Shown: piece after piece, positions 211 to 48,890 of the stretch
Layout: each line of letters starts with the position of its first letter
How positions within the stretch are numbered: position 1 is the first letter of the stretch
Assembly (NCBI GenBank): GCA_021735655.1
Contig: JAIPGM010000004.1
Location: 64,001-128,000, forward strand
Length of the DNA stretch: 64,000 nt
Source of the DNA: Candidatus Omnitrophota bacterium
GTDB taxonomy: Bacteria > Omnitrophota > Gorgyraeia > Duberdicusellales > 4484-171
Reading direction: 5' to 3'
Made by a program: the position numbers and the translations under genes
Notes under the pieces: model-generated
Databases searched by the model: none
Seen by the model: the letters and a program-made list of their open reading frames with translations, nothing else
What the model was told of the DNA's origin: nothing

Positions 211-669
211 TTACTCTACTTCGGAAAAGCCAACAGGACAACTTGTTCCGATATGAATATTTGGGGCAGGAGTGTTTACAGAATTAGATCTACAAAGAAG
301 ACCGTCCTCGTCAATATAATAAGTTTTAGCTTGAGCTAAATTCTGCGGTGTGGCCGTAGCGTAGAAATCAATGTAAGTATTAGGAACCGCTTTAATAATA
401 TATTCCTGCTTTATGCCGCTAGCTAAAGAAACGTCAATATAGGGAGGCTGGGCAGAAGCTAACTCCTGTAAAGTTGCATATTCCGGGTTAGTTGCCCGCC
501 ACTGCACTTCAGCAGAACAAACAATGCGAAGAAGATTCGCCGAAATAGCTGCTCGGGCAGACATCCGCGAACGCAATAAATTAGGTATAGCCAAAGCTGC
601 CAAGACAGATATTATGGTTACAACTATCATAAGCTCCATGAGAGTTATGGCCTTTTTTAATTTTTCCAT
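211..669 (-). CDS. type IV pilin-like protein (prepilin-type N-terminal methylation domain), paralog of the pilin at 3328-3777
   Basis: N-terminus KAITLMELMIVVTIISVLAALAIPN is a class III signal / N-methylation motif. C-terminal YIDEDGLLCRSN...C region and Cys pair are shared with the second pilin. Confidence 0.8.
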   Translation of the reverse strand: MEKLKKAITLMELMIVVTIISVLAALAIPNLLRSRMSARAAISANLLRIVCSAEVQWRATNPEYATLQELASAQPPYIDVSLASGIKQEYIIKAVPNTYIDFYATATPQNLAQAKTYYIDEDGLLCRSNSVNTPAPNIHIGTSCPVGFSEVE

Positions 670-3203
670 TTTATCTTAAAAGCATAAAGGTTAGCTTTAT
701 CTAACGCTATAAACGGTTCAAAGTAATCAAGAGTCTTTGCTTTTGTAAAATAAAGCTTAGCAAGCAAGCTCTCGCCTAAAGCTTTATTCGAAACTCCGAT
801 ACATTTCCACTGACCGTTATCCTTAAAAAAGAAACCACCAGAATTAAATCGCATTGGCTGGCTCATTTTAGATTCATTATAGGTCAAGTTGTCGCCATCA
901 AAAATAAAAGTAAAACTAAGCTCTTTGAATTTTTTTTCCGGCTGTTGAAACATCGTAGCCCGAGAACTATTCAGAGCTAAAACTATGCCATTGTCAAAAT
1001 AAACAGTTCCTGAATCCTCCCTACCTGCCGCCAAATAAAGCGGAAATGTCCACTTCTCAGAAACTACCTCGTTTACCTCTCGGCCAATTCTAGAAAACAT
1101 TACCTCTTCGTAAAGAAGTTCTGCTTCTGACTGCTTTAAACCAAACACCCGAAAAAGATTATTAATCACTTCCAACTTCGGCAGATCTTGATGCTTGATT
1201 ATATAAACTTTGGCAAAATTCCAATTACCTAAAAAAGAAATGGCTGAAATTTTATAGATCATGGTCTCATCAATAAACAAATAGGCTGGTGCCGGAATTT
1301 TAACAAAAATTACATCTTTTATTTTCTTAGCTAATCCTTTAGGTATTTTGTACTCTTTAAAAATAGCCTCGATATTTTTTTCTTCAGATCTCAATATCTT
1401 ATTAAGAAAAACAATTGAGGAAAAGTCGTCACCAAGGAAAGAATTAATTTGATCAAAAAGTGCGTCTGAAGAATTATTGATCATACGTAAAATTCGTACA
1501 GCTTCCTCTTCGTTACCAGCCAAGAAAACCCTCGCCATCCAATAAGTAATCGGTGCATCTTGAATTTGTGGGTCGACTAAGGTACGTCGATTAGCTATCT
1601 CTTTAAACCAGTTGCCATAATCCCACCAACTATTAATTACGCTATTCTCAGGTGTTTTTTCCTTTATTTGGATCATAAGATCATACCAACCATCATTAAG
1701 TATTGGAAACTGTATACTGGCTTGAGAAAAGCTTCTTCGCACCGGAATTGAAACTACAAGGCAAATTAAACAAACCGCACTCAAAATAAGGCCACTTCTA
1801 ACCTTATGGCTACTAACGCCTCTTACCCAATTCGGAAGTAACCGCCAGACATCGCCCAAGCTAACACTTAAAAAAATACCTAAAGGCACAAAAAGGAATT
1901 GAGTAAAACGCAACCCTTTTAGGCTGGCAAAAAACATAACAAAGGTCCAACAGCTAAGAATCAATACTATATCTGCCCGCTTGCCTCTTTTCTCTCGCAA
2001 ATATGTCCAAAGCAAACCAAACAAAGACAACATAAATATAGCCCAACCGCCAGTATATACCGGAATACTTGTAAAGCTTCCTTGCTTTAGCTCTGACACC
2101 GTATATAAAACTGAGGGCCAAATCGAGAAAGAAAGAGAGTTGCCCAATCTTAAATTGCTAGCTAAAGAACCATAAAGAAAAGAAAAAGGTTCAACCTTTG
2201 CAATAAGTAAACAAAAAATTACACTCCCCGATAAGAAAACAGCCAGAGAAACTAGATAGGGTGCATTTTTTTTCTTCAGGGTATCTCTATCTTTAAAATG
2301 TAAACAAAAATTATTAGCCAAGGTCGCAAGAAAAAATATAACGATTACCGCGAAAATAAACCACCAACCAACCCAGCTAAAAGCATATAATCCTAAAAGC
2401 AATGAAGCTAATAAAGAGTACTTAACGATTTGTATAAAAGTTTTGCTTTTTAGCCCTATACCAAGAAACCAAACTATCAACAAAGGAAATAAAACATTAA
2501 ATACATCCTGGTCAAACCAACCAGCAGAACTACGATGAATAAACACCGGAGAAAGACCAATAAAGATAATCGCAAATATTCCGGAAATGTTCGAAAAGAA
2601 ATAACGACAGAATAGGTAAAGAACAATACAAAACACAAAGGTAAGGAAAACCGGCAAATAAAAAACAAATTTCTCCAAAGACAGGTTGGGGAAAATAAAT
2701 GAAACTGCCCTATATAAATAGGCTGAAAAATAATAAAGAAACCTCTCAGGTGGAACTAACCCTCCCTGGGGGGCAAGCATAAACTTATCATAGATCTTGC
2801 CGTCTACTATCTTATTTCCCGGATAACCATTTTCTAAGGTAAGCCTAGTAAAACGTTTTCGACAATAAGGATCAACTTCAAGTAAGTAAGTCTGACCACT
2901 ATCATCTTGATATTGTGACTTTAGCCGCTCGTATTCCTTATTAACTCGCAGTTTAAAGCCTTTAGAATTCTTTCTGCCCTCTTTGACTACCTGCTTAGCA
3001 ATTTTTTCCTTTATCAAAGAGTTATAGCCAGGATACTGCTTTTGGGTAAATTCTCGAGCCTGAGAAAGCATCCGATCCTCTATATTAAGATGGGCTCTTT
3101 TCTTAAGTTGGGGAAAGTTGGCCGGAAATAAACGTAGGTAGACATTTAGCCCCAATACAGTTGCGAGGATTAAAAAAATGGTTACTTTTTTTAGCTTATC
3201 CAT
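657..3203 (-). CDS. oligosaccharyltransferase of the STT3/AglB/PglB family (N-glycosylation OST-like), 848 aa polytopic membrane protein
   Basis: More than 10 predicted TM helices followed by a soluble C-terminal domain containing NSWWDYGNWF (WWDYG hallmark motif). First-loop LEVDPYCRKR resembles the E-x-DPY..YR loop-1 motif of STT3/AglB. The domain order (TM core then WWDYG domain) matches OSTs. Confidence 0.7.
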   Translation of the reverse strand: MDKLKKVTIFLILATVLGLNVYLRLFPANFPQLKKRAHLNIEDRMLSQAREFTQKQYPGYNSLIKEKIAKQVVKEGRKNSKGFKLRVNKEYERLKSQYQDDSGQTYLLEVDPYCRKRFTRLTLENGYPGNKIVDGKIYDKFMLAPQGGLVPPERFLYYFSAYLYRAVSFIFPNLSLEKFVFYLPVFLTFVFCIVLYLFCRYFFSNISGIFAIIFIGLSPVFIHRSSAGWFDQDVFNVLFPLLIVWFLGIGLKSKTFIQIVKYSLLASLLLGLYAFSWVGWWFIFAVIVIFFLATLANNFCLHFKDRDTLKKKNAPYLVSLAVFLSGSVIFCLLIAKVEPFSFLYGSLASNLRLGNSLSFSIWPSVLYTVSELKQGSFTSIPVYTGGWAIFMLSLFGLLWTYLREKRGKRADIVLILSCWTFVMFFASLKGLRFTQFLFVPLGIFLSVSLGDVWRLLPNWVRGVSSHKVRSGLILSAVCLICLVVSIPVRRSFSQASIQFPILNDGWYDLMIQIKEKTPENSVINSWWDYGNWFKEIANRRTLVDPQIQDAPITYWMARVFLAGNEEEAVRILRMINNSSDALFDQINSFLGDDFSSIVFLNKILRSEEKNIEAIFKEYKIPKGLAKKIKDVIFVKIPAPAYLFIDETMIYKISAISFLGNWNFAKVYIIKHQDLPKLEVINNLFRVFGLKQSEAELLYEEVMFSRIGREVNEVVSEKWTFPLYLAAGREDSGTVYFDNGIVLALNSSRATMFQQPEKKFKELSFTFIFDGDNLTYNESKMSQPMRFNSGGFFFKDNGQWKCIGVSNKALGESLLAKLYFTKAKTLDYFEPFIALDKANLYAFKIKWKN

Positions 3204-3269
3204 ATCTTTATCGATATTTTACCATACTAAGTTTAAATCGCAATAACCGGATTGACTTTAAAGGCGGGT

Positions 3270-3306
3270 CGTAAAAATAATAAGGCGGTGGGAATCCCAC
3301 CGCCTT
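3270..3306 (-). terminator. intrinsic terminator downstream of the major pilin gene
   Basis: Stem GGCGGTGGG-aatc-CCCACCGCC at 3284-3304, followed on the minus strand by ATTATTTTTAC. Confidence 0.6.
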
Positions 3307-3327
3307 ATTATTTAATCACTTTTTTGC

Positions 3328-3777
3328 TTACTGCATTTCAGCATAACCAGATGGACAAGCATTCGTACCTTCATGAGCTGCGGCAGCAGTGCCAACAGCA
3401 GTAGATCTACATAGAATTCCATCTTCATCTATATAGAAAGAATGACCTTGTGCAGCAGTATTAACTGCTCTAGCTGCAAAAGTCCCATTAGTGTTGTCGG
3501 TAACAACTGAAAAAGTATATCCCTGTTTAGTTCCACCAGCCAAAGTTGTATCAATATAGGGTGGATTCTCACTGCCTAAAGTTGCCAAGGCAGCATAACC
3601 AGGATTAGTTGCTCGATATTGAATCTCAGCGGCAGCAACTGTATGAGCGGCTGCAGCTGCAGCAGCTTCTTGGGCTGACAAACGAGCCCTCAAAAGATTG
3701 GGTATAGCTATCGCCGCTAAAAGAGCAATGATAGCTACAACGATCATAATTTCAACAAGAGTAAAACCTTTCTTCAT
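3328..3777 (-). CDS. type IV pilin (likely major pilin)
   Basis: MKKGFTLVEIMIVVAIIALLAAIAIPN is a canonical prepilin leader plus N-methyl-Phe motif. C-terminal Cys pair present. Strong SD GGAGGTG 6 nt upstream of ATG. Own near-consensus promoter and terminator make it monocistronic. Confidence 0.9.
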   Translation of the reverse strand: MKKGFTLVEIMIVVAIIALLAAIAIPNLLRARLSAQEAAAAAAAHTVAAAEIQYRATNPGYAALATLGSENPPYIDTTLAGGTKQGYTFSVVTDNTNGTFAARAVNTAAQGHSFYIDEDGILCRSTAVGTAAAAHEGTNACPSGYAEMQ

Positions 3778-3930: not shown

Positions 3931-3960
3931 AATATAGCATATCGACCTCAGCTTGTCAAC
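3931..3960 (-). promoter_or_regulatory. near-consensus sigma70 promoter for the major pilin (TTGACA-N17-TATATT)
   Basis: Minus-strand read ggcgTTGACAagctgaggtcgatatgcTATATTtg; -35 at 3955-3960, -10 at 3931-3936. Confidence 0.55.
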
Positions 3961-3976: not shown

Positions 3977-5191
3977 TCAATGAACTCCGCCAATATATTG
4001 GGTAATTTTGATTATTGGCAAAAATAAAGAAACTACAATGCCACCAACGACTATTCCCAAAAAGCCAATAACTATAGGCTCGATTAAACTTGATAACCCA
4101 GCAACCATAGCATCAGTCTGCTCTTCATAAAATTGAGCTATCTTAGACAACATCTCCTCCAGCCTTCCGCTTTTTTCACCTACCGAAATCATCCTGGTAA
4201 CCATTGGAGGGAAAACTCCGGTTTTTTCTAAAGGAAAAGAAATCGGCTGTCCTTCTTGAATCGCTGTCCGGGACTCCATAACTGCCTCTTCAATAACAAC
4301 ATTTCCTGAGGTCTTGGCTACAATCTCCAAACACTTTAATATCGGAACTCCGCTACGAACCAAAGTAGAAAATGTCCGGGAAAATTTAGCAATCGCTAAC
4401 TTTCTAGCTAAATTTCCAAATACCGGAAGCCGTAAAATAAATTTATGGAAGTTGCGCTTGCCTTTTGGTGTTTTGATATAACGAGTAAAAAGCATGCCGC
4501 CGCCGCCTAAAATAATCAGTAAGCCAAGGATTGATGTTGGCTTTCGGGCCAAATCCGAAAAACTTATCAAAATTCTAGTAGGCAAAGGTAAAACCCCGCC
4601 AAGAGCAGAAAAAATCTCTTTAAAGGTAGGGATTACCTTAAAGATTAAAAACGAAGTTATGGCTATCGCCATAAGAACAATGATTACCGGATAATAAAGA
4701 GCCGAAATCACTTTCTTCCTTAAAGCACTGCTTTTTTCTAAGTAAAATGAAACCCGATCTAAAATCTCCGGCAAATTCCCAGAAGCTTCCGCTGCTTCAA
4801 CCATGCTTAAATAAATATCAGGAAAAACATCCTTATGCCCAGAAAGGCTGGCTGAAAGAGATGTTCCTTCTTTAACCTCGCGCAAAATAGCCCAGATAAC
4901 TTCCTTAAAATAAGCCTGCTCGGTTTGTTCGCCTAGAATGCCCAAACACTCAACTACCGGAATTCCGCTTTCAATTAAAGTAGTGAATTGACGCGAAAAA
5001 ATTACTAAATCATCGGTTTTTATCTTGCCTTTTCTTTTTTTCCTAGCCTTTTCCTTAGTCTCTTCAATTGAAAAAATAATACTCTCTTGGCCATGAAAAT
5101 GCTCAATAAGCTTTTGTTTAGACTCAGCCTCAATAACCCCCTTGGTTGTTTTTCCTTCCTTGTCCTTAACGATATATGAAAATAACTTCAT
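3977..5191 (-). CDS. pilC: type IV pilus / T2SS inner-membrane platform protein (GspF/PilC family)
   Basis: 404 aa, two T2SS-F repeats, 3 TM segments; sits immediately downstream of the PilB ATPases. Confidence 0.85.
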   Translation of the reverse strand: MKLFSYIVKDKEGKTTKGVIEAESKQKLIEHFHGQESIIFSIEETKEKARKKRKGKIKTDDLVIFSRQFTTLIESGIPVVECLGILGEQTEQAYFKEVIWAILREVKEGTSLSASLSGHKDVFPDIYLSMVEAAEASGNLPEILDRVSFYLEKSSALRKKVISALYYPVIIVLMAIAITSFLIFKVIPTFKEIFSALGGVLPLPTRILISFSDLARKPTSILGLLIILGGGGMLFTRYIKTPKGKRNFHKFILRLPVFGNLARKLAIAKFSRTFSTLVRSGVPILKCLEIVAKTSGNVVIEEAVMESRTAIQEGQPISFPLEKTGVFPPMVTRMISVGEKSGRLEEMLSKIAQFYEEQTDAMVAGLSSLIEPIVIGFLGIVVGGIVVSLFLPIIKITQYIGGVH

Positions 5192-5192
5192 C

Positions 5193-6914
5193 TCACTCCG
5201 AGATTACCCGAATAACTTCCTCTGCCGAAGTTACCCCTTCGCTACATTTTAAAAAACCATCTTCGGCCAAAGATTGGTAACCCTTAAATTCTCGAGCGTA
5301 CTGGATAATCGTTTCCTCAGTTGCTAATTCAATAATCATCTCTCTTATTTTATCATCTAAAAGAATAATTTCCAGTATTGCTACTCTACCTCTATAACCG
5401 CTGTGAGCGCAGTGAGGACAGCCCTTGGCTCGATAAATCTTTTTTGGCTCGTTGTTCCCCATTATTTTACTACTTAATCCAAACCCCAAACGCTTCAATA
5501 AATCCTTATCCGGGATATATCCTTCCTTACATTTAGGACAAAGCTTACGCACTAAACGCTGAGCAGTAAGGGCAACTAACGATGAAGCTAACAGGAATGG
5601 CTCTGTACCCATATCGCGCAGACGAGCTATTGCTCCCACTGCGCTATTGGTATGAAGAGTAGAAAGTATGGTCTCGCCGGTTAAAGAAGCTTTAATCGCT
5701 GTGTCGGCAGTCTCAGCATCTCTGATTTCACCAACCATAATTACATCCGGTGATTGACGCAAAACCGACCGTAAACCAGCAGAAAAAGTTAAGCCGATTT
5801 CAGCATTAACTTGAATTTGAGTTATACCTTCTAAATGATACTCAACCGGCTCTTCAATAGTTATAATATTTTTATCAGTCGAGTTAATCTGATTAATGAT
5901 TGAATAAAGAGTTGTTGATTTACCGCTTCCAGTTGGCCCAGTAACTAACATTATTCCAAAGGGAGCTTTGATTGCCTCTTCAAACAAAGCCAGCGGCCCG
6001 GGCGAAAACCCTAGTTTTTTTAACCCTATCGATAAGCTCTCTCTATCGAGCACCCGGAGAACAAACTTCTCGCCAAAGTGGGTAGGTAAACTAGAAACTC
6101 TAAAATCTATTTCCCGAGACTCAAATTTAACCCGAAATCTACCGTCTTGAGGAAGCCGCGACTCAGTAATGTCTAGAGATGAAATGATCTTCAAGCGAGC
6201 AATTACGGCTTGCTGGCTGGTTTTAGGAAAACTAAACTCATCGGCCAAGGATCCATCTACTCGATAACGAATTAATAATTTATCTTCACAAGGCTCAATA
6301 TGGATATCTGATGCCCGCTTCTTTAAGGCATTATAAATAATAACATCAATTGCTCTCACGACCGGAGGATGCTTGCTTTCTGAAATTGAACTCTCTAGAT
6401 CTTGTTTAGACTCTTGATGCAACAATCCTTCGCCAACCGAATCAAGAGATACATCGCTACTAAGGGTTTCGGAAATATGTTCAGCCGACTTGTATAAAAA
6501 ATTTATGGCTCTACTTATATCCTTCTCACGAGAAAGAACCAAATCAACCTTTTCGGCATTGGTAATAATCTTTATGTCGTCATGAGTAATAACATCTAAA
6601 GGATTGGCTGTGGCCAAAGTCAGAACATTGCCGATCTTGCATAAAGGAAGAACCTTATGCTTAATTGCTATATCTTTAGGTAATAGCTCTTGATTCTTGT
6701 AAGGTAGTTTATATTTTTTTAAATCAAGAAAAGGGATCTTAAGTTCTTTGGAAAACATCAATAAGAGCTCTTCTTCGCTGATAAGCCCGCTCTCAATCAA
6801 AAGGCTCCTTAAATCAGCATAGGTACGAGCTCGTTTGGCAATATCGATAAGGACCTTCTTGTCACATTTTTTGTCCTCTTGAATGTACTTTATTATCTTC
6901 TCTTTTATGGTCAT
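5193..6914 (-). CDS. pilB: type IV pilus assembly ATPase (GspE/PilB family) with N-terminal GSPII_E_N/MshEN-like domain
   Basis: Walker A GPTGSGKST, Walker B DVIMVGEIRD, His box STLHTNSA, tetracysteine CPKC...CPHC; 573 aa. Confidence 0.9.
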   Translation of the reverse strand: MTIKEKIIKYIQEDKKCDKKVLIDIAKRARTYADLRSLLIESGLISEEELLLMFSKELKIPFLDLKKYKLPYKNQELLPKDIAIKHKVLPLCKIGNVLTLATANPLDVITHDDIKIITNAEKVDLVLSREKDISRAINFLYKSAEHISETLSSDVSLDSVGEGLLHQESKQDLESSISESKHPPVVRAIDVIIYNALKKRASDIHIEPCEDKLLIRYRVDGSLADEFSFPKTSQQAVIARLKIISSLDITESRLPQDGRFRVKFESREIDFRVSSLPTHFGEKFVLRVLDRESLSIGLKKLGFSPGPLALFEEAIKAPFGIMLVTGPTGSGKSTTLYSIINQINSTDKNIITIEEPVEYHLEGITQIQVNAEIGLTFSAGLRSVLRQSPDVIMVGEIRDAETADTAIKASLTGETILSTLHTNSAVGAIARLRDMGTEPFLLASSLVALTAQRLVRKLCPKCKEGYIPDKDLLKRLGFGLSSKIMGNNEPKKIYRAKGCPHCAHSGYRGRVAILEIILLDDKIREMIIELATEETIIQYAREFKGYQSLAEDGFLKCSEGVTSAEEVIRVISE

Positions 6915-6915
6915 C

Positions 6916-8619
6916 TTATTTTAATGGTTCATCTGGCGCAGTAACTTTAAGTACTTCTTCTAAAGTAGTAATTCCTTTTTCGACTTTCAAAATTCCATCC
7001 TGGCGCAAAGTACGCATACCTAGGTTACGGGCTTTTTTCTTAATGATACTTTCTGAAGCCGAAGAGTTTACTAAATTTTTTATTTGTTGATCAACGTGCA
7101 GATACTCACAAAGGGCAACTCTTCCCTTATAGCCAGTATTCTGGCAATTTCTACAGCCTTTTGATTTATAAATTAAAACTTCTTTATTAATAAGATATCG
7201 CTCGCGAACCGAATCAGATAATTCAAATTCCTCTTTACACTTAGGACACAACATTCGCACTAAACGCTGAGTGAGCACCCCAACCAATGTCGAAGAAAGC
7301 AAAAATGGCTCAACTCCCATATTAATAAGACGAGTGATTGAACCTGCGCTGGTCGTAGTATGAAGTGTGGAAAGAACTAAGTGCCCGGTTAAAGCTGACT
7401 TTATGGCCATGTCAGCAGTGTCAGCATCTCTGACCTCACCGATCATTATTATGTCCGGATCCTGACGCAATATTGAACGTAAACAGGCAGAAAAAGTCAA
7501 ATGAATCGAAGGATTAATACTGGTTTGGTTGATCCCTTTTAATTGGTATTCTATCGGATCTTCTACGGTAACTATGTTCTTCTCCGGTGCGTAAACATGT
7601 TTAATCACCGAATAAAGGCTGGTGGTCTTACCGGCCCCAGTAGGACCACAAACCAAAAGAAGACCGTGAGACTTAAGACTATCTTCCCGTAACTGTTTTA
7701 AAACATCTTCTTCAAACCCCAAAAGATCCAAATTAAGTAAAGCAGTTGCCTTATCTAAAACTCTAATCGCGACTTTTTCTCCAACACTAGTAGGAAGAAC
7801 TGAAACTCGAAAATCAACATTTTTATTTGAAATTCTGCTCCGAAATCTTCCTTCTTGAGGCAAACGGTGTTCGGCAATGTTTAAATTACACATTACCTTT
7901 ATCCGTGATATAGCAAAAGGATGAATTTTTTTTGAAAAGGTATCGATTTCTTGCAAAATTCCGTCAATCCGAAATCGAATCCGACTTACGTTTTCTAAGG
8001 GTTCTATCAGAATATCTGAAGCGGCCTCTTCAACTGCCTTAGTTAAAAAAGAATTGGTAAACTTTATTACCGGAGCCTCTTCAATTGAACGGACGATTTC
8101 TTCTTGAGTTACTTCCTTTTTGACCTTTTTTACAAACTCTAAGCTTTCGGCATGCTGCCCCTTAATAATATCCTCAATCGAAACCATATGGACCTGAGAA
8201 TAATGCATTGAGATGGCTTCTTTTATTTCTGAAAGCGGGGCAATTATCGGATTTACTTCACACTTAGTAATTTTTTTAATATCGTCAATAACTAAAATAT
8301 CTAAAGGATCACCCATGGCCAAGGTTAAGGTGTTGCCAATCTTGCCGATTGGTAAAACCTTATGGTCTCGGGCGACTCTTTCCGGAACTAAAGATATGAT
8401 CTCCTTGGGAATATTAAGATTAAGGATTCGAACCGGTGGGATTGAAAGATAGCTAGATAGTAAATCGAGAAGATCTGGTTCTTTTATGTAGCCTAACTGC
8501 ATAAGCTGCTCAACTAAAGAACCGCCCTTCTCCTTGTGGACGACTAAGACTTTATCTAAATCCTGTTTAGTTAAAAGTCCTTTTTCTAATATGTAATCGG
8601 TAAATTTTTTACTCTTCAT
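6916..8619 (-). CDS. second GspE/PilB-family secretion ATPase paralog with N-terminal GSPII_E_N domain
   Basis: Walker A GPTGAGKTT, DIIMIGEVRD, TLHTTTS, CPKC...CRNC; 567 aa. Tandem to pilB with a 1-nt spacer. Confidence 0.85.
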   Translation of the reverse strand: MKSKKFTDYILEKGLLTKQDLDKVLVVHKEKGGSLVEQLMQLGYIKEPDLLDLLSSYLSIPPVRILNLNIPKEIISLVPERVARDHKVLPIGKIGNTLTLAMGDPLDILVIDDIKKITKCEVNPIIAPLSEIKEAISMHYSQVHMVSIEDIIKGQHAESLEFVKKVKKEVTQEEIVRSIEEAPVIKFTNSFLTKAVEEAASDILIEPLENVSRIRFRIDGILQEIDTFSKKIHPFAISRIKVMCNLNIAEHRLPQEGRFRSRISNKNVDFRVSVLPTSVGEKVAIRVLDKATALLNLDLLGFEEDVLKQLREDSLKSHGLLLVCGPTGAGKTTSLYSVIKHVYAPEKNIVTVEDPIEYQLKGINQTSINPSIHLTFSACLRSILRQDPDIIMIGEVRDADTADMAIKSALTGHLVLSTLHTTTSAGSITRLINMGVEPFLLSSTLVGVLTQRLVRMLCPKCKEEFELSDSVRERYLINKEVLIYKSKGCRNCQNTGYKGRVALCEYLHVDQQIKNLVNSSASESIIKKKARNLGMRTLRQDGILKVEKGITTLEEVLKVTAPDEPLK

Positions 8620-9060
8620 TTAAGGGTAGAATCTACCTATACCACTACGTATGTCTGAAGGGGTACTAACAAATATTTGGATATCGCAATGGGTCAGGTC
8701 TTCTAAATCTTCAATGGCATGAATATTAAGAGGATTGGCCATAGCTAAAGTCAAAGTGTTCCCTATTTTATCTATTGGAAGTAAACAATAATGACCGCAA
8801 ACGTTTTTGGGGACTAAAGAAACTACCTCTTCGGAAACTTGATAGTTCTCTAAAGGAAGATAGGGATAACCAAACTGTAAAGACAAGCAATAGGCAATAT
8901 CTTCCTCTTTGGCAAAGCCTAAACTTACAATGACTTCACCGATTAAACCTCCTTGACGTTTCTGGCTTGTTATAGCTTCCTTCAGTTGATCGGGAGTAAT
9001 TACCCCTCTTTCTGCTAAAATCTGCCCCAAAGGCTTATCTATTTTTTTGTGAGATTTCAT
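8620..9060 (-). CDS. standalone MshEN-type (T2SS-E N-terminal) domain protein, putative c-di-GMP receptor
   Basis: 146 aa with no ATPase domain. Carries two tandem 24-aa motifs PLGQILAERGVITPDQLKEAITSQ and LIGEVIVSLGFAKEEDIAYCLSLQ separated by the 5-aa spacer KRQGG. This matches the MshEN c-di-GMP-binding motif RLGxxLLxxGLLxxxxLxxxLxxQ x2. Confidence 0.65.
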   Translation of the reverse strand: MKSHKKIDKPLGQILAERGVITPDQLKEAITSQKRQGGLIGEVIVSLGFAKEEDIAYCLSLQFGYPYLPLENYQVSEEVVSLVPKNVCGHYCLLPIDKIGNTLTLAMANPLNIHAIEDLEDLTHCDIQIFVSTPSDIRSGIGRFYP

Positions 9061-10662: not shown

Positions 10663-11532
10663 CTATTCAATATCTTGCCAAGACACTGTCTCCGAAGATG
10701 AGAACCCCAAATTAGCTAAAGCTGCACTTATCAGGTCAGGGTCATAAGCTAAATCGACACTGCCCTTAATGGTAGTATCTATACCGGCGCCGCTTTCAGC
10801 AAGAACTGACCCGCTGATAGCAACATTACCGGTAATTGAAAGTTCCCCGATAACATAAATTATACCTTCAAAATTTTCAGTTCCCGACATGTGAACGTCC
10901 CCTTCTATGACTAAAATCCCGCTGCCCTGTAAATTTCCTGCCGTTGTCAAAGTTACCCCCGGAGAAACCTCAACCCAGGTTATGCCGTCAACCGGCTCAC
11001 CAAAAGTGCTTTCATCGTAAAGGTGCGTGGCCATATTCTTTACTGATTCTTTACTATTTGCAAACAAATCCGAAAAATTTAAAACCGCTTGTTCATTGAA
11101 CGAATCCTCAGGAGTAATGGTATATGCCTGGCCTTTAATTACTAAATCACCTGTTGTCTCAATCGCGTATTGGAACTTGGAGGAATCAGGAGGATCTACT
11201 CTTACAATTGCGCGTAAAGACTTTTCGATTGTTGCCCCGGAAGATAAAGTAACTGTGCCGGTTGAGTCGATCTGATAATACCAATTACCTAACGCTTCTG
11301 TGGTTGCCGCATAACAATAGTTACTTTTCATACATCCAGATGTATTGTCGGGTAGATTACCCTTGCTCATTGCAATACCAGCCTCGGCCAGCCAAAAAGC
11401 TTCGACAGCCCCTACATATCTTGTGGTAAGCTTGTTCTCATTTATAGTTTTTAAAAAAAGTGCTGTCGATAGCATAATCATAATCAACATCATTAAAAGA
11501 CTAAGGATTAAAACACCGCCTCTTTTATTCAT
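10663..11532 (-). CDS. PilX-N-terminal-domain pilus assembly / minor pilin-like protein
   Basis: N-terminus MNKRGGVLILSLLMMLIMIMLSTALFL is the PilX_N pattern; repetitive beta-rich C-terminal region. Confidence 0.5.
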   Translation of the reverse strand: MNKRGGVLILSLLMMLIMIMLSTALFLKTINENKLTTRYVGAVEAFWLAEAGIAMSKGNLPDNTSGCMKSNYCYAATTEALGNWYYQIDSTGTVTLSSGATIEKSLRAIVRVDPPDSSKFQYAIETTGDLVIKGQAYTITPEDSFNEQAVLNFSDLFANSKESVKNMATHLYDESTFGEPVDGITWVEVSPGVTLTTAGNLQGSGILVIEGDVHMSGTENFEGIIYVIGELSITGNVAISGSVLAESGAGIDTTIKGSVDLAYDPDLISAALANLGFSSSETVSWQDIE

Positions 11533-12154
11533 TTCTTATTTTCACATCCAGTTCTAAGGTAATTGGAAGAAGGTCCCTCTCCCGAACCTGACTTTGGCCG
11601 GTGATCGCGACAACCATCCTCTTACTATTATTAAGATTATCTTTAAAATTATCCGTCGTTCTCGCGCCGCCAGTATCGATAGTATAAAAAGGCGGCTCTG
11701 TTATGCCTATAAACTCCCTGCTTTCTGTTGTATTGTTGCCGCTATCAATAACACTGCGCGTAATCTTACTTAAAGTATTATCGTAATCATACTCAATATA
11801 GTCCAGACTTAATATATAATTACCGGTAGTTGTATTTATCCCGTCAACCGTCCGAAATTTAATATACGAAGCAGAAGGGTTATTGTTGGCTATGTCCCAG
11901 CAAGGAGCCTGGCGGATATCTCTAACTATTAAATTCCCTATCGACCTTATCTTAGCCTGAAAATCTATTTTGGCAGTCATTACCGGAAAAACTGATTCTC
12001 CTGCTTGAAGAACTCTAACCACTGCAGTAGCAATAAGTGACAGCACCAGAGAAGCAATCAATATCTCCGTAAGGGTAAATGCTTTCTGCTTAGCGATGAA
12101 TGCATGTTGAGAGCTCAAAATATCTTGTTTTCTGCCTTTCAGACCAGCTAACAT
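11525..12154 (-). CDS. prepilin-type N-terminal cleavage/methylation domain protein (pseudopilin/minor pilin)
   Basis: KAFTLTEILIASLVLSLIATAVV motif. The listed start overlaps the upstream gene by 65 nt, so the true start is probably internal or an alternative codon. Confidence 0.6.
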   Translation of the reverse strand: MLAGLKGRKQDILSSQHAFIAKQKAFTLTEILIASLVLSLIATAVVRVLQAGESVFPVMTAKIDFQAKIRSIGNLIVRDIRQAPCWDIANNNPSASYIKFRTVDGINTTTGNYILSLDYIEYDYDNTLSKITRSVIDSGNNTTESREFIGITEPPFYTIDTGGARTTDNFKDNLNNSKRMVVAITGQSQVRERDLLPITLELDVKIRNE

Positions 12155-12497
12155 TTGCTATTACCTCCGTAAGCGACGTTTCTGTACCTGCCGCCTGAAC
12201 AGTAACATTCTCATCTATCAAATTATCAAACACCGGCGGAGAATAAACATCTATATCCCCATAAGATAAGGTCTTGATCTCCTCTAATACACATTGAGCA
12301 TCGTTAGCCGCAGCTACTAAGTTATTGCTTGATTCATTGAGAAAAGCGCAAGAAACAAAAGCCATAATCAACCCACTAGCAACTATCATTATAATAGCCG
12401 CAGCTATCATCACTTCCAATAGAGTAAACCCAGCCCGCTTAGAAAAACTCTTACGCATAGCTTTATTTATTTGGCCTTTTTCCTTAAAATTCCTCAT
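12090..12497 (-). CDS. prepilin-type N-terminal cleavage/methylation domain protein (GspG/PilV-like pseudopilin)
   Basis: KRAGFTLLEVMIAAAIIMIVASGL motif; 135 aa. Confidence 0.65.
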   Translation of the reverse strand: MRNFKEKGQINKAMRKSFSKRAGFTLLEVMIAAAIIMIVASGLIMAFVSCAFLNESSNNLVAAANDAQCVLEEIKTLSYGDIDVYSPPVFDNLIDENVTVQAAGTETSLTEVIANVSWSERQKTRYFELSTCIHR

Positions 12498-29640: not shown

Positions 29641-30321
29641 TTAGTAACCTTTAGCCTCAATATTTTGTTTTATGCCTCGGGCCATGATTTTAAAGTCAGT
29701 CAATAAAAGACGCCAAGCCGAAAACTCCATATATTTTTTGATATAGTCGTACTCCAAAACTAAATTATGTAAATCTGGTGTACCCTTACGAACATCCGTT
29801 TCGCTCCACAAAGCAGCCTTTAAAACTTTTTTATGCACATAGCCTTCTTGCAAAACATCCTGATAAACCTCCCAAGCAATAGCTCGTGTTCCAACAAAGG
29901 ACATATCGCCTTTAACGATATTGAAAAGTTGGGGAAGCTCATCTAAGTAAGCTTTTTTTAAAATTTTTCCCACCCGAGTTAATTTTTCGGGAAACTCTTC
30001 CGGATAAGCCGCAACATCATATTGCTCTCTTAAGCGTTTGTTGATAAAACGCATTTTAGTAATTCTAAATTTATACTTTATGAATTTTTTTCCTCGGTCT
30101 GAAGCAATATAGGAAGCTAAAATCCCGCCTCGATCGTCGGGATAAAAAAGATTATCAATTAGGTAGGCAAAAAATATCAGTAGAAAAACCGGCGAAGCAA
30201 ATAAAATCGCAATGACTGAAGCACAACGGTCAAATATCGCTTTACAAGGCCTAACCGGCAATGGCCCCTTTAAAGCAAAAATTTCTTTATAATTTTCTCG
30301 TAACTGCTCAACTTTTTCCAT
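29641..30321 (-). CDS. bacterial sugar transferase (PglC/WbaP-C-like phosphoglycosyltransferase), divergent paralog
   Basis: Re-entrant helix, KYKFRIT, LDELPQLFNIVKGDMSFVGTRA. The DE dyad is kept but the canonical PRP motif reads TRA. Confidence 0.65.
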   Translation of the reverse strand: MEKVEQLRENYKEIFALKGPLPVRPCKAIFDRCASVIAILFASPVFLLIFFAYLIDNLFYPDDRGGILASYIASDRGKKFIKYKFRITKMRFINKRLREQYDVAAYPEEFPEKLTRVGKILKKAYLDELPQLFNIVKGDMSFVGTRAIAWEVYQDVLQEGYVHKKVLKAALWSETDVRKGTPDLHNLVLEYDYIKKYMEFSAWRLLLTDFKIMARGIKQNIEAKGY

Positions 30322-30336
30322 ATAAATAACTTAAAA

Positions 30337-30978
30337 TTAATTAGGGTCGTTTAGTTGGCTTTCTATTTTGTTTTTAAGAGCTCCTCCTAAAAAACGAAAT
30401 TTATCGCCTTCTACTTCCCACTTGCTGTTAAACGTTACTAAAAATGATAGAAAAATAAGATAAAAATCTAAAAAAAAGGTCCGATTTTTTACATACCAGA
30501 TATCGTATTTAAACTTTTCGCGAAAATTAAGATAGTGAGAACCAAACACTTGAGCCACCCCGGTCAGTCCCGGCCTTATAGCATTTCGCTTAGTAAAATC
30601 GGGAAACTCCAGACAAAACTTTTTAACAAATTCCGGTCTTTCAGTCCGCGGGCCAACGAAACTCATATCTCCTTTTAAAATATTAATTAATTGCGGAAGC
30701 TCGTCTAAAGCCGACTTCCTTAGCCTTTTCCCGATCTTTGTACTTCTGGCATCATTTCCTAAGGATAGAGTTGGGCCAATATCCTTTTCAGCGTTAGGGA
30801 CCATTGAACGAAACTTAAGTATTTTGAATACTTTATTATCTTTGCCAATTCTGGCTTGAGAATAAAAAATAGGCCCGCCGTCTTCCACTTTAATCAATAA
30901 AGCAATGACAACCCCCAAGGGAAAAGCTAAGATTAAGCCAGTTAAGGAAAAAATAATATCGAATGATCGTTTAAGCAT
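30337..30978 (-). CDS. small monotopic phosphoglycosyltransferase (PglC-like, undecaprenyl/polyprenyl-phosphate sugar-1-phosphate transferase)
   Basis: KRSFDIIFSLTGLILAFPL...KFRSM...LDELPQLINILKGDMSFVGPRTERPEF are canonical motifs. Confidence 0.85.
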   Translation of the reverse strand: MLKRSFDIIFSLTGLILAFPLGVVIALLIKVEDGGPIFYSQARIGKDNKVFKILKFRSMVPNAEKDIGPTLSLGNDARSTKIGKRLRKSALDELPQLINILKGDMSFVGPRTERPEFVKKFCLEFPDFTKRNAIRPGLTGVAQVFGSHYLNFREKFKYDIWYVKNRTFFLDFYLIFLSFLVTFNSKWEVEGDKFRFLGGALKNKIESQLNDPN

Positions 30979-31028
30979 TTAAGTTAAGCCATAAATCTAA
31001 AAATTATTTCCGAAGGCATTTTACTATA

Positions 31029-32147
31029 TTACAATCTACATTTCAATATCTCTTCATACACCTGTTGGCTCTCGACCAGCATCCGATCTAAACTAAACTT
31101 TCTTAGGGCCCGTTGATAACCTGCTTCCCCCATATCTTTGCGCAATTTCTTATCTTCGATTAGCTTCTCTAAGGCTCCGGCTAAAGCCGCGGGGTCGCGC
31201 GGCGGGACTAAAAACCCGGTAACTGAATTTTTAACCAACTCACTCACTCCCCCGACATCTGTGGCTACTACTGGCAGCTTAGCTAACATTGCTTCAATGA
31301 TTGAGCGCGGAAGGCCTTCCCAATTCGAAGATAGCACAAAAATATCTGAAGCAACTAAAAACTCTTCCACCCGCTTTTGTTCGCCGACGAGCACCACCCG
31401 ATCAGCTAAATTACTCTTACCGATCATCCCTTGCACTTGCTGACGCAAAGGGCCATCACCAACAATAATTATTTTTGCTTTTGCGATAAGCTTTGCCGCT
31501 TTGATAAGAGTAGATAAATCTTTCTGAGGGTTTAGGCGGCCAACAAAAGTTATCACCGTGGCCTTCTCTAGTTTTAGCTCCTTTCGAATTTTCATTCTAT
31601 CAGCTTCGCCAATTGGGGCTGGATCTATGCCATTATGAATGATTGCCAGCTTGTTCGGCGGTGCGATTCTGAACTTAAGCGCTAGCCTATAGTCATACTC
31701 GGAAACGCAGATAATCTTAACTGTAGATTTAGCAGCTAAACGTTCAAGCCATGACAAAAACCAACGTTTCCCAAAAGAGCGTCCTTCGCCAAAACTCCAT
31801 CCATGAGCTGTAAAGATTACTGGCTTACGCTCCCAGGCTGCGCTAAGCCGCGCCGCCAACCCAGCTTTAGTGCTATGGCTGCTTATTATATCCGGCTTAA
31901 AAAACTTTATTGCCCGCCATACTGAAATTAAAGCCCTCAAATCGTGGTAAGGAGAAATAGGATAAATAAAATGGGGCTCGGGGAAAACTTTGGCTCCAAT
32001 AACTTTGGCCGCCTGCATTAAGCGCGGTTCGGGACCGGCAACTAAACCGACCCTACAACCCTTTGCGGCGAAATAACGCATTAAATGAACCACATGCTTA
32101 GTAGCCCCGCCAAAAGCAGCTGCTGTAGTAATATATAAAATCCTCAT
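31029..32147 (-). CDS. glycosyltransferase family 4
   Basis: EGLPRSIIEAMLAKLPVVATDVGG GT-B motif. Confidence 0.8.
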   Translation of the reverse strand: MRILYITTAAAFGGATKHVVHLMRYFAAKGCRVGLVAGPEPRLMQAAKVIGAKVFPEPHFIYPISPYHDLRALISVWRAIKFFKPDIISSHSTKAGLAARLSAAWERKPVIFTAHGWSFGEGRSFGKRWFLSWLERLAAKSTVKIICVSEYDYRLALKFRIAPPNKLAIIHNGIDPAPIGEADRMKIRKELKLEKATVITFVGRLNPQKDLSTLIKAAKLIAKAKIIIVGDGPLRQQVQGMIGKSNLADRVVLVGEQKRVEEFLVASDIFVLSSNWEGLPRSIIEAMLAKLPVVATDVGGVSELVKNSVTGFLVPPRDPAALAGALEKLIEDKKLRKDMGEAGYQRALRKFSLDRMLVESQQVYEEILKCRL

Positions 32148-32209
32148 CTGAAATCACCTTGCCGGCATTTTACTTGTTTTCGATTAATCTCTCTACGAAA
32201 AAATTACCC

Positions 32210-33343
32210 CTATGATGGCCCTAATCGTTCATACAATCTTTCATATTGCTCTAAGTTCCGACTCAAGGGAAAATTGTCCTTAATCCGCTGCCGGGCTGCT
32301 GTTCCCAGTTTTCGGCGGCCTTCCGAACCCAATTCTATAAGTTGCTGCCAAGCCTCGGTAAGCGCTTTTGGGTTTTTTGGCGGAACAACCAGTCCGGTCT
32401 CGCCAACCACAAAGGCTGAATCTCCCACATCGGTTGTGACACAAGGAGTGCCACAAGCCATGGCTTCCCCTAATACATTAGGAAATCCTTCTCCGCAGGA
32501 AGACGATAAAGTTACAATATCTAAACCTGACAATATTTGTGGTAAATCATTTCTTTCCCCTAATAGGTAAACCCGTTGCTGAAGACCCTTTTCAACAACC
32601 CATTGGAAAAGTTGTTTATTGCTTTCAGTGACCCTTGGCCCAATTAAAATGAAATAGACTGCCGGAACTTTTTTACTTAAACCTTCGGCAGCCTCAATAA
32701 AACCTCGCTGGTCCTTTTGGGGATGAAACCGGGCAACTAAACCTATTAACAGCGCCTCCTTGGAAAGTTTAAGTTCCTGAAGAAGCTTGGCTCGAGCCGA
32801 TAGATCGGGTTTAAACTCAACTAAATCGTAACCGTTAAAAATTACAACCATTTTGTCGCTACGGTAGCGATATTTAAGGTGTATTCGCCGGGTTTCTCGT
32901 GAGCAGCATACTATAACCTCAGGGACCCAACCTGACAGCAAAGCCCCGGCCTTTACTACCGATAAAGTGGTTTTTTTCACAAACCCTACACTGGTATCAC
33001 TATGATGCAGCCCCCAAATAACCGGGATTCCGCCGGCAAGCTTAGCGGCGATGCCTCCGATTAAATTCGCATGATACATCCAGGTTTGAACCAAGTCAAA
33101 CCGGCTGCGCTTCAAATAAACTATTAACTGGATTAGAGCTTTAAGGTCAGAAACTCTATAGCGCATGTTTAGGGCTTTTACATTTATACCTAAATTTTGG
33201 ATTTTTTCTCCGACCGGACCGAGCTCAGTTAAAGAAACAACTGAAACTTTATACTTTTCTTTATCCAAACCCAAAAGGAGCCGATACAATACCATCTCGG
33301 CACCACCAATATTTAGACCAGTTATAATATGACAGATTCTCAT
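32210..33343 (-). CDS. glycosyltransferase family 4
   Basis: EGFPNVLGEAMACGTPCVTTDVGD motif. Confidence 0.8.
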   Translation of the reverse strand: MRICHIITGLNIGGAEMVLYRLLLGLDKEKYKVSVVSLTELGPVGEKIQNLGINVKALNMRYRVSDLKALIQLIVYLKRSRFDLVQTWMYHANLIGGIAAKLAGGIPVIWGLHHSDTSVGFVKKTTLSVVKAGALLSGWVPEVIVCCSRETRRIHLKYRYRSDKMVVIFNGYDLVEFKPDLSARAKLLQELKLSKEALLIGLVARFHPQKDQRGFIEAAEGLSKKVPAVYFILIGPRVTESNKQLFQWVVEKGLQQRVYLLGERNDLPQILSGLDIVTLSSSCGEGFPNVLGEAMACGTPCVTTDVGDSAFVVGETGLVVPPKNPKALTEAWQQLIELGSEGRRKLGTAARQRIKDNFPLSRNLEQYERLYERLGPS

Positions 33344-33366
33344 TAAATTAACTGTCCCGTTTATTT

Positions 33367-34464
33367 TTAGCTCTTAAGCAGTTTAAAATATTCCCCAACA
33401 ACTGCCTCTCTAGTAAATATTTTTAACTCTTCGGCCTCAATACCTTTACCGGGTCGATCGAGTGTAGCAATAATCGCTGCGGCTAACCTCTCCCAATCAC
33501 CTACCGGAACTAGCTTTCCCAGCCGTCCGCCTTGTAATATTTCCCTAGAACCCCCCGGACTATCAGTAGCCACTACTGCTACCCCCAAAGCTAAGGCCTC
33601 AATCAAAACTGTGGGAAGCCCTTCCCAGGCTGAAGACAAAACAAATATTTTAGCTTTAGCCATCCAAGCATAAGGATTTTCAACAAACCCAGGCATCGCT
33701 ACGTCTGCCTCCAAGTTTAATTCCTTAATTAACTTTTCAAGGCTGCCGCGTTCCTCCCCCTCGCCTAAAATTATTAACCGAGCTGGGCGTTGCTCCAAAA
33801 TCCGTCTAAACGCTCGAAGCAGCGTCCCAAAATCCTTTTGCGCTGTTAGCCGGCCTACCGAAAGTAAAACTGGTATATCTTTTTCAATAAACCACTTGTG
33901 TTTAGGGTTATCCCTGCCTTTAGCTATAAGCTCTGAGGTAATAACTGGGTTAGGGATAATCTTAATTTGGCTTAACTTAGCCATGCCCAATTTAGCTATT
34001 TCCGCGGCGACAGCTTGCGATACTGCTACCACCGTCTGGGCTCGAAAATAAATTAGCTTAGCTAAAAATAAACCCACCCTATCCTTTAACCTGAATTGTT
34101 TTGACCGGCTGGCCAAAACCGTATTTTGAACTATAACGATAATTTTTGTATTCACTCTAGCAAACCAACCTGCCAAAATAGCTATGACATTAGCATGTCT
34201 CATAGCTGAAAGCAAACTCGCTGGCTGTTCTTTTTTAAGATATCCAACTAACCCTTTAAGGCTGGTTAAAACTCGTTGAGCCCCTAAATTTATTACTTTG
34301 ACCTCGGGTGGGATTTGAGATAGATAAGGGCCTTGGGCTTTAGCCAACACTATTTCTACAGTCAAGCCGCGTTCCTGCAACCCAATAGCTAAGTTAAGCA
34401 TCGCTCGTTCGGCTCCCCCACCACGCATTGAAGGCACAAAAATAGCTACCTTGTCTTTATTCAT
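33367..34464 (-). CDS. glycosyltransferase family 4
   Basis: EGLPTVLIEALALGVAVVATD motif. Confidence 0.8.
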   Translation of the reverse strand: MNKDKVAIFVPSMRGGGAERAMLNLAIGLQERGLTVEIVLAKAQGPYLSQIPPEVKVINLGAQRVLTSLKGLVGYLKKEQPASLLSAMRHANVIAILAGWFARVNTKIIVIVQNTVLASRSKQFRLKDRVGLFLAKLIYFRAQTVVAVSQAVAAEIAKLGMAKLSQIKIIPNPVITSELIAKGRDNPKHKWFIEKDIPVLLSVGRLTAQKDFGTLLRAFRRILEQRPARLIILGEGEERGSLEKLIKELNLEADVAMPGFVENPYAWMAKAKIFVLSSAWEGLPTVLIEALALGVAVVATDSPGGSREILQGGRLGKLVPVGDWERLAAAIIATLDRPGKGIEAEELKIFTREAVVGEYFKLLKS

Positions 34465-35588
34465 GGTTTTTTCGAATTAGCTCCAGACTGATAAACTTCA
34501 TCGACCACCCTTCGCCACATTTCTAAAATTCTTGAAGAGCCAAATCTTTCCAACACTTCTGGAGCACGCAAAGCCAATCGTTTCCTTTCATTCTCATCAC
34601 GCATCAGCTTAGCAATGGTTGTAGCTAAAGCCGCCACATTTTCTGGCGGTACCAACACTCCGTCAATTTTATCTCTGATAATTTCACTTGGCCCGCAGGG
34701 GCAATCAAAACTTACCACCGCCACCCCTTGAGCCATTGCTTCAAGAATGACCATCGGAAAACCCTCAAACCGCGATGACATTGCAAAAATGTCAGCCTGT
34801 TTTAAAATAGCTAGCGGGTTAGGAACTAGCCCTAACAAAAATATGCGATTTTTCAAATTTAATGAGCCGATCAACCTCTCTAGTTCCCCTTGCATCTGCC
34901 CTTGCCCTAAGATGACTAAGTTCCAATCAAGATTATTGGAAGAAACCTTGGCAAAACTCTCAATCAACAAATCAAACCCTTTTTGCCGAACCAGCCTCCC
35001 GATAGCAACTATTAATTTACCCTTGGGGAGCTTAACCTGATTAGAAATATTACTCCTTTCATCCTCAAGCCTGATCGGATTAGGGATTATGACTACCTGT
35101 TCACTAGCCAACCAATTAGTGAAATATTTTTTCATGCTTTTAGTTAGCACCACAACCCGGCTAGCCCAACGATAAGCAATTCTTCGCAATAAAATCAGCA
35201 TTCGTCTTCCCTGTTTTGAATCCATATGTTCTGAAACAATTACTGGGATCTTTGAACCAAACAAAGAAAATAAAGTTAGCACATTGGTCTTATCCATAAA
35301 ACTTACAACGACATCGGGGTTGCTTCTTTTTATTTCCCTGCGCAGCCGATAACTTCGACGCAGGCTCCTTATTACGGTTTGGAAAATATTATTTGATACA
35401 GACAATAAGCCAAGTGAACGCTGAGTTATTGTTTCATCTATTTTAAAAAAAGGTTTCCTGCCCCAATCCAAGGTAAGTAAAGTAACTGAATAGCCTTGCT
35501 TTGCAAAATAATTAGCCACCGTACTCATCACTCTTTCTGCTCCGCCGGCTGAAAGAGATGGGATAACAAAAGTTATACGTATCGCCAT
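34461..35588 (-). CDS. glycosyltransferase family 4
   Basis: EGFPMVILEAMAQGVAVVSFD motif; 4-nt overlap indicates translational coupling. Confidence 0.8.
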   Translation of the reverse strand: MAIRITFVIPSLSAGGAERVMSTVANYFAKQGYSVTLLTLDWGRKPFFKIDETITQRSLGLLSVSNNIFQTVIRSLRRSYRLRREIKRSNPDVVVSFMDKTNVLTLFSLFGSKIPVIVSEHMDSKQGRRMLILLRRIAYRWASRVVVLTKSMKKYFTNWLASEQVVIIPNPIRLEDERSNISNQVKLPKGKLIVAIGRLVRQKGFDLLIESFAKVSSNNLDWNLVILGQGQMQGELERLIGSLNLKNRIFLLGLVPNPLAILKQADIFAMSSRFEGFPMVILEAMAQGVAVVSFDCPCGPSEIIRDKIDGVLVPPENVAALATTIAKLMRDENERKRLALRAPEVLERFGSSRILEMWRRVVDEVYQSGANSKKP

Positions 35589-35639
35589 TTTTTAATCTTT
35601 AATCCTTACCCGTCCCCGATATTATAACTGCGCCTCTAA

Positions 35640-41469: not shown

Positions 41470-41485
41470 CTCTTAAGCCGCCCTT

Positions 41486-48842: not shown

Positions 48843-48861
48843 CGAAACGAAGTATAGCGAG

Positions 48862-48890
48862 GTCAATGGGATTCGACCCCACGATCACCT
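48862..48890 (-). other. degenerate tRNA 3'-end-like fragment (T-arm + acceptor 3' strand), candidate att site of the adjacent mobile element
   Basis: Minus-strand read CGTGGGGTCGAATCCCATTGACCTCG resembles the GGTTCGAATCC T-loop region with one T missing. No 5' acceptor or D arm, so it is not a functional tRNA. Confidence 0.35.

Follow-up and report, generated by a model that had tools for sequence, protein, structure and literature searches.

The archaeal AglB enzymes of Methanococcus, Haloferax and Sulfolobus are single-subunit oligosaccharyltransferases (OSTs) of the STT3 family that recognize the plain N-x-S/T sequon, and their pilin-like substrates carry class III signals and several non-conserved sites per subunit. 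Pilin glycosylation in bacteria is described as O-linked, and the enzymes concerned, PilO/TfpO, PglL and PglS, belong to the Wzy_C family, are encoded beside or act on type IV pilins, and transfer lipid-linked glycans to Ser/Thr residues in the periplasm before pilus assembly; the TfpO gene lies directly downstream of pilA. Campylobacter PglB is a bacterial, periplasm-facing, single-subunit enzyme of the STT3 family that is not associated with pilins. Lipid-linked N-glycosylation in bacteria has generally been described as limited to epsilon- and delta-proteobacteria (PMC4973528), and the Desulfovibrio-type PglB homologues are bacterial OSTs outside Campylobacter which are reported to accept N-x-S/T with no acidic residue at -2 (PMC4894442, PMC12229607). 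Here we analyzed a stretch of 64,000 nucleotides from a Candidatus Omnitrophota bacterium (contig JAIPGM010000004.1, positions 64,001 to 128,000; hereafter the window), in which a gene at 657-3203 encoding a predicted OST of the STT3/AglB/PglB type is located between two type IV prepilin genes, pil1 and pil2. The sequence-only reading of this DNA had proposed an N-OST within a pilin locus, and this overall interpretation was supported by the results presented below.

The reading that we favor, with a probability of about 0.68, is that the window encodes a pilin-directed N-OST of the STT3 type belonging to a type IV pilus operon. The OST gene would share a transcript with pil2 and the PilMNOPQ genes. 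The pilins would be anchored in the inner membrane with the globular domain exposed to the periplasm. There the enzyme would take a glycan off a polyprenyl-phosphate carrier and attach it to the Asn in plain N-x-S/T sequons of the pilins, without requiring an acidic residue at -2, and glycosylation would precede polymerization by PilB/PilC/PilMNOPQ. What the analysis shows is that the protein belongs to the family and has its fold and conserved catalytic residues, that its linkage to the operon is conserved, and that the sequon excess is specific to pilins; we infer that transfer takes place, which glycan is donated, when this occurs with respect to prepilin cleavage, and which pilins are modified in this organism.

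By analogy, the system would be nearest in function to archaeal AglB acting on pilins or archaellins, in host and topology to PglB, and in gene arrangement to the TfpO/PilO-pilA pair. The AglB systems differ in that the window host is bacterial, with PilM/N/O, a secretin and a G|FTL-E leader, in that the OST gene is placed within the pilus operon, and in the carrier, presumably undecaprenyl rather than dolichyl phosphate in the window. PglB shares 14-15% identity with the window OST, and the linked pilins do not follow its D/E-x-N-x-S/T rule, nor is a pgl-type cluster present around the window OST. The Desulfovibrio-type homologues belong to another phylum and another branch of the family, and the titles and abstracts of the reports describing them mention no linkage with a pilus operon. 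Unlike PilO/TfpO, PglL and PglS, the window protein has an STT3 fold. A search of the openly accessible literature returned nothing pairing Omnitrophota or Omnitrophica with STT3 or OST and no description of N-linked bacterial type IV pilins, and in a preprint on giant genes in Omnitrophota, which does touch on secretion systems and class III signal peptides, no OST is mentioned.

The OST was first assigned from its architecture, and the assignment was borne out at the level of both profile and fold. The Pfam STT3 model (PF02516) matched residues 93-464 with an E-value of 2.4e-37 and a score of 129.8 bits against a cut-off of 24.5, and the STT3-PglB_core model scored 23.1 with a cut-off of 23. 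The AlphaFold model, with a predicted local distance difference test (pLDDT) score of 88.9, had STT3B, AglB and PglB as best matches, the top Foldseek match being Campylobacter PglB (5ogl, 2.8e-21), while A. fulgidus AglB was the top profile match among solved structures (6.5e-18). The model shows a GT-C core of 13 transmembrane (TM) helices followed by an extracytoplasmic C-terminal domain, the closest folds being solved OSTs; the beta-rich C-terminal domain matches that of C. jejuni PglB. Identity with a PMT/ArnT-type GT-C was rejected, as such folds rank below all OSTs. Identity with a PglB orthologue was also rejected, both on the score for the NCBIfam equivalog NF050801 (26.8 bits against a cut-off of 1300) and on the type of sequon. 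The model of the archaeosortase-A-associated archaeal STT3 (TIGR04154) was missed with 73.6 bits against a cut-off of 450, which further separates the protein from the curated archaeal enzymes, and no Wzy_C domain of the PglL/PilO/TfpO class was matched in the Pfam search. On profile scores and modeled structure, gene 657-3203 is thus a genuine member of the STT3/AglB/PglB family, outside both PglB proper and the curated archaeal subfamily. A Candidatus Omnitrophica metagenome-assembled genome (MAG) contains the identical protein under the annotation "hypothetical".

The STT3 assignment also rests on the conserved catalytic residues, whose conservation was judged across 25 relatives. The first acidic residue, in external loop 1, is D111, which is invariant, lies in the E-x-DPY-like motif already recognized by the sequence-only reading (LLEVDPY, residues 106-113), and aligns with D47 of A. 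fulgidus AglB (AfAglB) and with the FDPY motif of STT3A; we take the external-loop-1 catalytic Asp counterparts to be D56 in PglB, D47 in AglB and D49 in STT3A. The second acidic motif, GWFD231-x-D233, is equally invariant and aligns with SYDNE of STT3A and FNDHH of AfAglB. The TIXE/SVSE-type motif of external loop 5 corresponds to T368-V-S-E371, which follows a flexible loop of low confidence. The V and E of the motif do not vary, and 23 of the 25 relatives have the T; E371 was assigned by motif and position rather than by residue-level structural superposition. The WWDYG motif was placed as expected in the soluble C-terminal domain beyond the TM core (W526-W-D-Y-G530), with W, W and G invariant and D in 24/25, and aligns with the same motif of STT3A and AglB. 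Finally, a conserved helix, D592...L600 (within residues 584-606), aligns with the DDINKFLWM helix of STT3A and reads DDFSSIVFL here, L600 being invariant across the OST family; this helix may represent a third type of Ser/Thr-pocket motif besides DK and MI. As judged from sequence and model, the enzyme is most likely a catalytically competent, single-subunit OST of the inner membrane with a periplasmic WWDYG domain.

The association with pilins was evaluated by scanning GTDB with a single genome for each species; 108 OST relatives were found. The loci of 80 of these, nearly all labelled Omnitrophota, were fetched and annotated by phmmer with the window proteins and by a prepilin-leader pattern, which may miss some prepilins, with genes called by a simple open reading frame (ORF) heuristic. 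A prepilin gene was found at <=1 kb from the OST in 29/80 species-level loci, and among the 74 loci with an upstream gene the immediate 5' neighbor was a same-strand prepilin in 24, with gaps ranging from -4 to 904 nt. Although these loci are rich in pilus genes, prepilins make up only 93 of their 1095 genes, so that the adjacency of OST and prepilin exceeds chance. The common layout in the relatives is PilM-secretin-PilB-PilC followed by 3-6 prepilins and then the OST, whereas the window shares with six close relatives (L002, L003, L005, L011, L017 and L082) the order pilin-OST-pilin-PilM...secretin, and gene order is identical in relatives whose OSTs are 70% (L082) and 63% (L002) identical to that of the window. 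In a neighbor-joining (NJ) tree of 72 full-length OSTs, pilin-linked copies occurred in all three deep clades, one large derived subclade being unlinked. A look-up of clusters of distant homologues returned almost no taxon names, the sole named distant relative being Woesearchaeota, and the OST family may be of archaeal origin.

Two further observations were made on these loci. A secretin and/or a PilB-like ATPase lies within 10 kb of the OST in six unlinked loci (L063, L077, L065, L075, L029 and L052), and the link with pili or secretion may therefore be looser but wider than the count of 29/80. In several MAGs, two OST paralogues are encoded on separate contigs (L021/L036, L029/L075, L044/L079, L018/L032 and L060/L061); one of these pairs has a pilin-linked copy (L060), and the flank of its partner is too short to judge.

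Sequon content provided a second type of data. The 92 OST-linked pilins contained 2.07 N-x-S/T per 100 aa, compared with 0.39 for other ORFs from these loci (n = 869). When the globular domains of the 92 pilins were shuffled protein by protein, 268 sequons were observed against 132.6 +- 9.8 expected (z 13.9, with related sequences treated as independent), the excess being 2.53x for N-x-T and 1.47x for N-x-S. Control motifs in the same pilins gave 1.17x (S/T-x-N), 0.89x (N-x-x-S/T), 0.79x (Q-x-S/T) and 0.69x (N-x-A/G). Together with the per-protein shuffles, the controls with a reversed, shifted or Q/D-substituted motif led us to reject an artefact of composition. Enrichment was seen in each of the four orthologous pilin classes (2.05x, 1.44x, 1.74x and 2.93x). 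Among the other proteins of the same loci, soluble proteins gave 0.98x, N-terminally hydrophobic, exported-like proteins 0.89x, PilQ 0.83x and PilC 0.73x, the sole non-pilin exception being a conserved active-site motif of a family 2 glycosyltransferase (GT2). As a negative control, 117 Pseudomonas-type type IVa pilins showed 0.79x overall and 0.91x for N-x-T; these had been retrieved with a PAK query, and only the retrieved database sequences entered the analysis. The same-locus categories and these 117 pilins led us to reject a general trait of exported proteins or of pilins as the source of the excess. An acidic residue occupied position -2 in just 18/269 sequons of the linked pilins, so the implied specificity is of the archaeal/eukaryotic kind and not PglB-like.

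Several points weigh against a pilin-directed OST. The evidence is wholly computational and all sequences come from MAGs, the OST tree was built by NJ only, and the shuffle z-scores take no account of relatedness. The register of the helix equivalent to DK/MI is ambiguous, with K/R595 in 14/25 relatives and S in the window OST, or alternatively S/A/T596 as the key position. No conserved sequon positions were found among pilin orthologues, of which at most about 40% share any column; sites thus turn over, as would be expected if selection acted on the density of glycans and not on individual positions. In the window itself pil2 has no sequon, the six major pilins of the window, L002 and L017 contain 3 sequons against 5.3 +- 2.1 expected, the 4 and 3 sequons of the two window minor pilins trend upward without reaching significance for either protein (P = 0.10 and 0.18), and tblastn over the 64 kb returned no GT2/GT-C partner, the adjacent GT2 being missing in the window's subclade. 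Moreover, about 60% of the OST family members are not beside pilins, and the OST is therefore not strictly pilin-dedicated. This last figure is at the core of a different explanation, in which the enzyme is a general N-OST for many periplasmic or surface proteins, with pilins as one abundant substrate and the operon position reflecting co-expression rather than specificity. The homologues outside pilus operons typically show the order response regulator-histidine kinase-OST-GT2-GT-C, with the two regulatory genes often 5' of the OST, some MAGs have two paralogues, and both PglB and AglB are established as broad-spectrum enzymes. However, in the sampled sequence, about 20 kb around each OST, the excess is found in pilins only and is lacking in exported-like proteins and PilQ, and we regard a general OST as unlikely.

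The sequon counts of the window's own lineage would also fit an enzyme that is a lineage relic, acting mainly on minor pilins or unrelated proteins or being lost, with pil1 and pil2 essentially unglycosylated. The deficit in the three sets of major pilins, the in-frame stop in the L017 OST together with the sequon-free L017 pilins, and the 35 of 115 pil1-family members without a sequon point in this direction. On the other hand, the OSTs of the window, L082 and L002 are full-length, that of the window has all invariant catalytic residues, and the N-G-T of pil1 occurs at the same column in exactly these three genomes. The pil1 family overall is moderately enriched, with 142 sequons against 89.3 +- 8.7 expected, in a sample obtained by a pil1 homologue search that yielded only close Omnitrophota orthologues. 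Such a relic thus appears quite improbable. O-linked glycosylation of the pilins by the Wzy_C protein at 40030-41469 (PglL/PilO/TfpO-like), with the STT3 homologue working in a different pathway or on an acceptor that is neither Asn nor a protein, would agree with the position of this protein inside the window glycan cluster and with the Wzy_C enzymes that O-glycosylate Neisseria and Pseudomonas pilins (PMC1976384). Its gene is nevertheless 36 kb away from the pilins and its product matched no curated NCBIfam model, an O-antigen ligase or polymerase being equally consistent. Moreover, this explanation accounts neither for the N-x-T-specific excess in pilins nor for the conserved OST-pilin adjacency, and Asn transfer is the reaction for which the catalytic and WWDYG motifs of STT3 are used. 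Although both systems could coexist, we consider O-linkage by this protein in place of the OST very improbable, and a pilin-directed N-OST remains our preferred reading.

Within the window's own lineage, the N-G-T of pil1 is missing only in L017. The OST of this relative (L017:3644-6190; 66% identical) carries an in-frame Tyr-to-stop change in the C-terminal domain, and its flanking pilins (3073-3555 and 6187-6639) have lost the N-G-T and contain no sequon at all; here the enzyme and its sites may have decayed together, or the sequencing may be in error. On sequence grounds, N97 of pil1 and both minor pilins (11.5-12.5 kb) are our candidates for modification in the window organism.

Both prepilins flanking the OST exceeded the threshold of the Pfam N_methyl model (PF07963; 31.6 bits for pil1 and 22.5 bits for pil2, cut-off 21.2), in agreement with the class III signals originally ascribed to them. 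The leaders read K-K-G|FTLVE in pil1 and K-K-A|ITLME in pil2, with Glu at +5 and an N-terminal hydrophobic helix, and the two proteins are 51% identical. The difference in sequon content between the two paralogues, the 13-nt overlap between pil2 and the OST gene (657-669, with the pil2 ATG inside the OST gene end), and the near-consensus promoter and terminator of pil1 were all found as the sequence-only reading had described them (Table 1). A weaker promoter-like site, a consensus match only, lies just 5' of the OST start (3216..3243, - strand; TTGCGA-16-TAAAAT, 9/12, TG). The pil1 model, built from 53 sequences with a pLDDT of 86.6, shows the architecture expected of a pilin, namely a long alpha-1 helix (residues 7-57) packed on a four-stranded antiparallel sheet, with the conserved C123 and C141 in keeping with a C-terminal disulfide. 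Type IV pilins head the PDB structures that it matches, although the E-values (0.02-0.5) are weak, and N97 is located in a modeled beta-turn between the first two strands (87-94 and 99-106).

Table 1. Coordinates of the OST, prepilin, pilus and glycan features in the window
Feature	Position	Strand	Details
pil2, prepilin paralogue	211..669	-	152 aa; zero N-x-S/T
STT3/AglB-type N-oligosaccharyltransferase (OST)	657..3203	-	848 aa; 13 predicted TM helices; periplasmic C-terminal domain
Intrinsic terminator after pil1	3275..3313	-	18-bp stem, 8 GC pairs, T run
pil1, putative major type IV prepilin	3328..3777	-	149 aa; one sequon, N97-G-T99
Segment covered by a pil1 tryptic peptide			...VVTDNTNGTFAAR
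pil1 sigma-70-like promoter	3931..3959	-	TTGACA-17-TATATT, TG extension, 11/12
PilC-type platform protein (T2SSF)	3977..5191	-	Pfam
PilB-type assembly ATPase with MshEN domain	5193..6914	-	Pfam
Second PilB-type ATPase with MshEN domain	6916..8619	-	Pfam
Stand-alone MshEN-domain protein	8620..9060	-	Pfam
Minor prepilin	11525..12154	-	Mature 184 aa; 4 N-x-S/T sequons
Minor prepilin	12090..12497	-	Mature 112 aa; 3 N-x-S/T sequons
Candidate donor-glycan assembly cluster	29641..43300	-	2 Bac_transf, 6 family 4 glycosyltransferases (GT4), 2 GT2, Wzy_C protein, HepA/MsbA/PglK-type ABC exporter

On the longer source contig, which reaches past the window start, the gene order is PilB-PilB-PilC-pil1-OST-pil2-PilM-187 aa protein (N)-PilO-123 aa protein (P)-secretin-AAA ATPase, and 5' of these pilus genes the window also contains a GAF-GGDEF protein, a DUF7305 protein and the two minor prepilins. 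This order and the upstream prepilins place the OST inside a complete bacterial-type pilus locus. The tandem PilB ATPases, each with a MshEN domain, the MshEN-only protein and the GAF-GGDEF protein occupy window positions 5193-10380, and a HAMP-GGDEF protein is encoded at 27893-29359; MshEN is described as a domain binding cyclic di-GMP, and the window pilus may therefore be under cyclic di-GMP control. The neighbors of the minor pilins, namely the DUF7305 protein (window 10663-11532) and a DUF4900 protein in the nearest relative (L082:844-2217), may be pilus-tip or PilY/PilX-like components. Elsewhere in the window, an 804-aa protein (46452-48866) joins an M28 peptidase domain to one resembling spermine/spermidine synthases, and an Rfam scan of the window returned just one tRNA. 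All real-looking ORFs of >=120 aa in positions 1-64000 are on the - strand and each of the 2-kb bins has a negative GC skew, an unusually strict co-orientation.

As to the donor glycan, the Bac_transf enzymes of the window cluster are polyprenyl-phosphate phosphoglycosyltransferases of the exopolysaccharide (EPS)/WcaJ/WbaP-like type, and the cluster is followed by a sulfotransferase (45372-46250). The cluster could supply the undecaprenyl-pyrophosphate-linked glycan used by the OST; alternatively, it could be an unrelated EPS or O-antigen locus. A different set of genes accompanies the OST in the relatives, where a membrane-anchored GT2 lies just 3' of the OST in 57/81 loci overall, in 18/29 pilin-linked loci with enough flank, and downstream of the OST in 33/43 unlinked loci, directly adjacent in 32 of them. 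This protein matches Pfam Glycos_transf_2, with the dolichol-phosphate mannose synthase (DPMS) of P. furiosus as best PDB match (2.6e-16), followed by ArnC and GtrB, and is often followed by a PMT_2-type GT-C (e.g., L024, L036, L069 (L006-L081)). These counts indicate that the family core consists of the OST and a polyprenyl-phosphate sugar synthase, and in about 40% of the species this OST-GT2 core is joined to the end of a pilin gene block. The module of OST, DPMS-like GT2 and GT-C in the window's relatives resembles Haloferax AglB/AglD/AglS, whose logic is the addition of a sugar from a polyprenyl-phosphate carrier on the outer face.

The wider proposal, that major and minor pilins are densely N-glycosylated throughout the phylum Omnitrophota by an operon-encoded AglB/STT3-like OST reading the minimal N-x-S/T sequon, has in our estimation an even chance of being right. 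If true, archaeal-style N-glycosylated pili would be a bacterial trait too, the partnership between AglB and pilins would not be exclusive to archaea, and a phylum-wide, pilin-wired OST of the STT3 type would give N-glycosylation a third, independent bacterial home. Single-subunit bacterial OSTs accepting plain N-x-S/T are wanted for glycoprotein production in E. coli (PMC4894442, PMC12229607), and the present family would offer >100 diverse enzymes to try, each paired with a small protein that is its natural acceptor. Omnitrophota are widespread and uncultivated, and the finding, if true, would also open a first way into the surface biology of this phylum; N-glycosylation of the pilins may relate to the epibiotic or predatory lifestyle proposed for its ultra-small cells.

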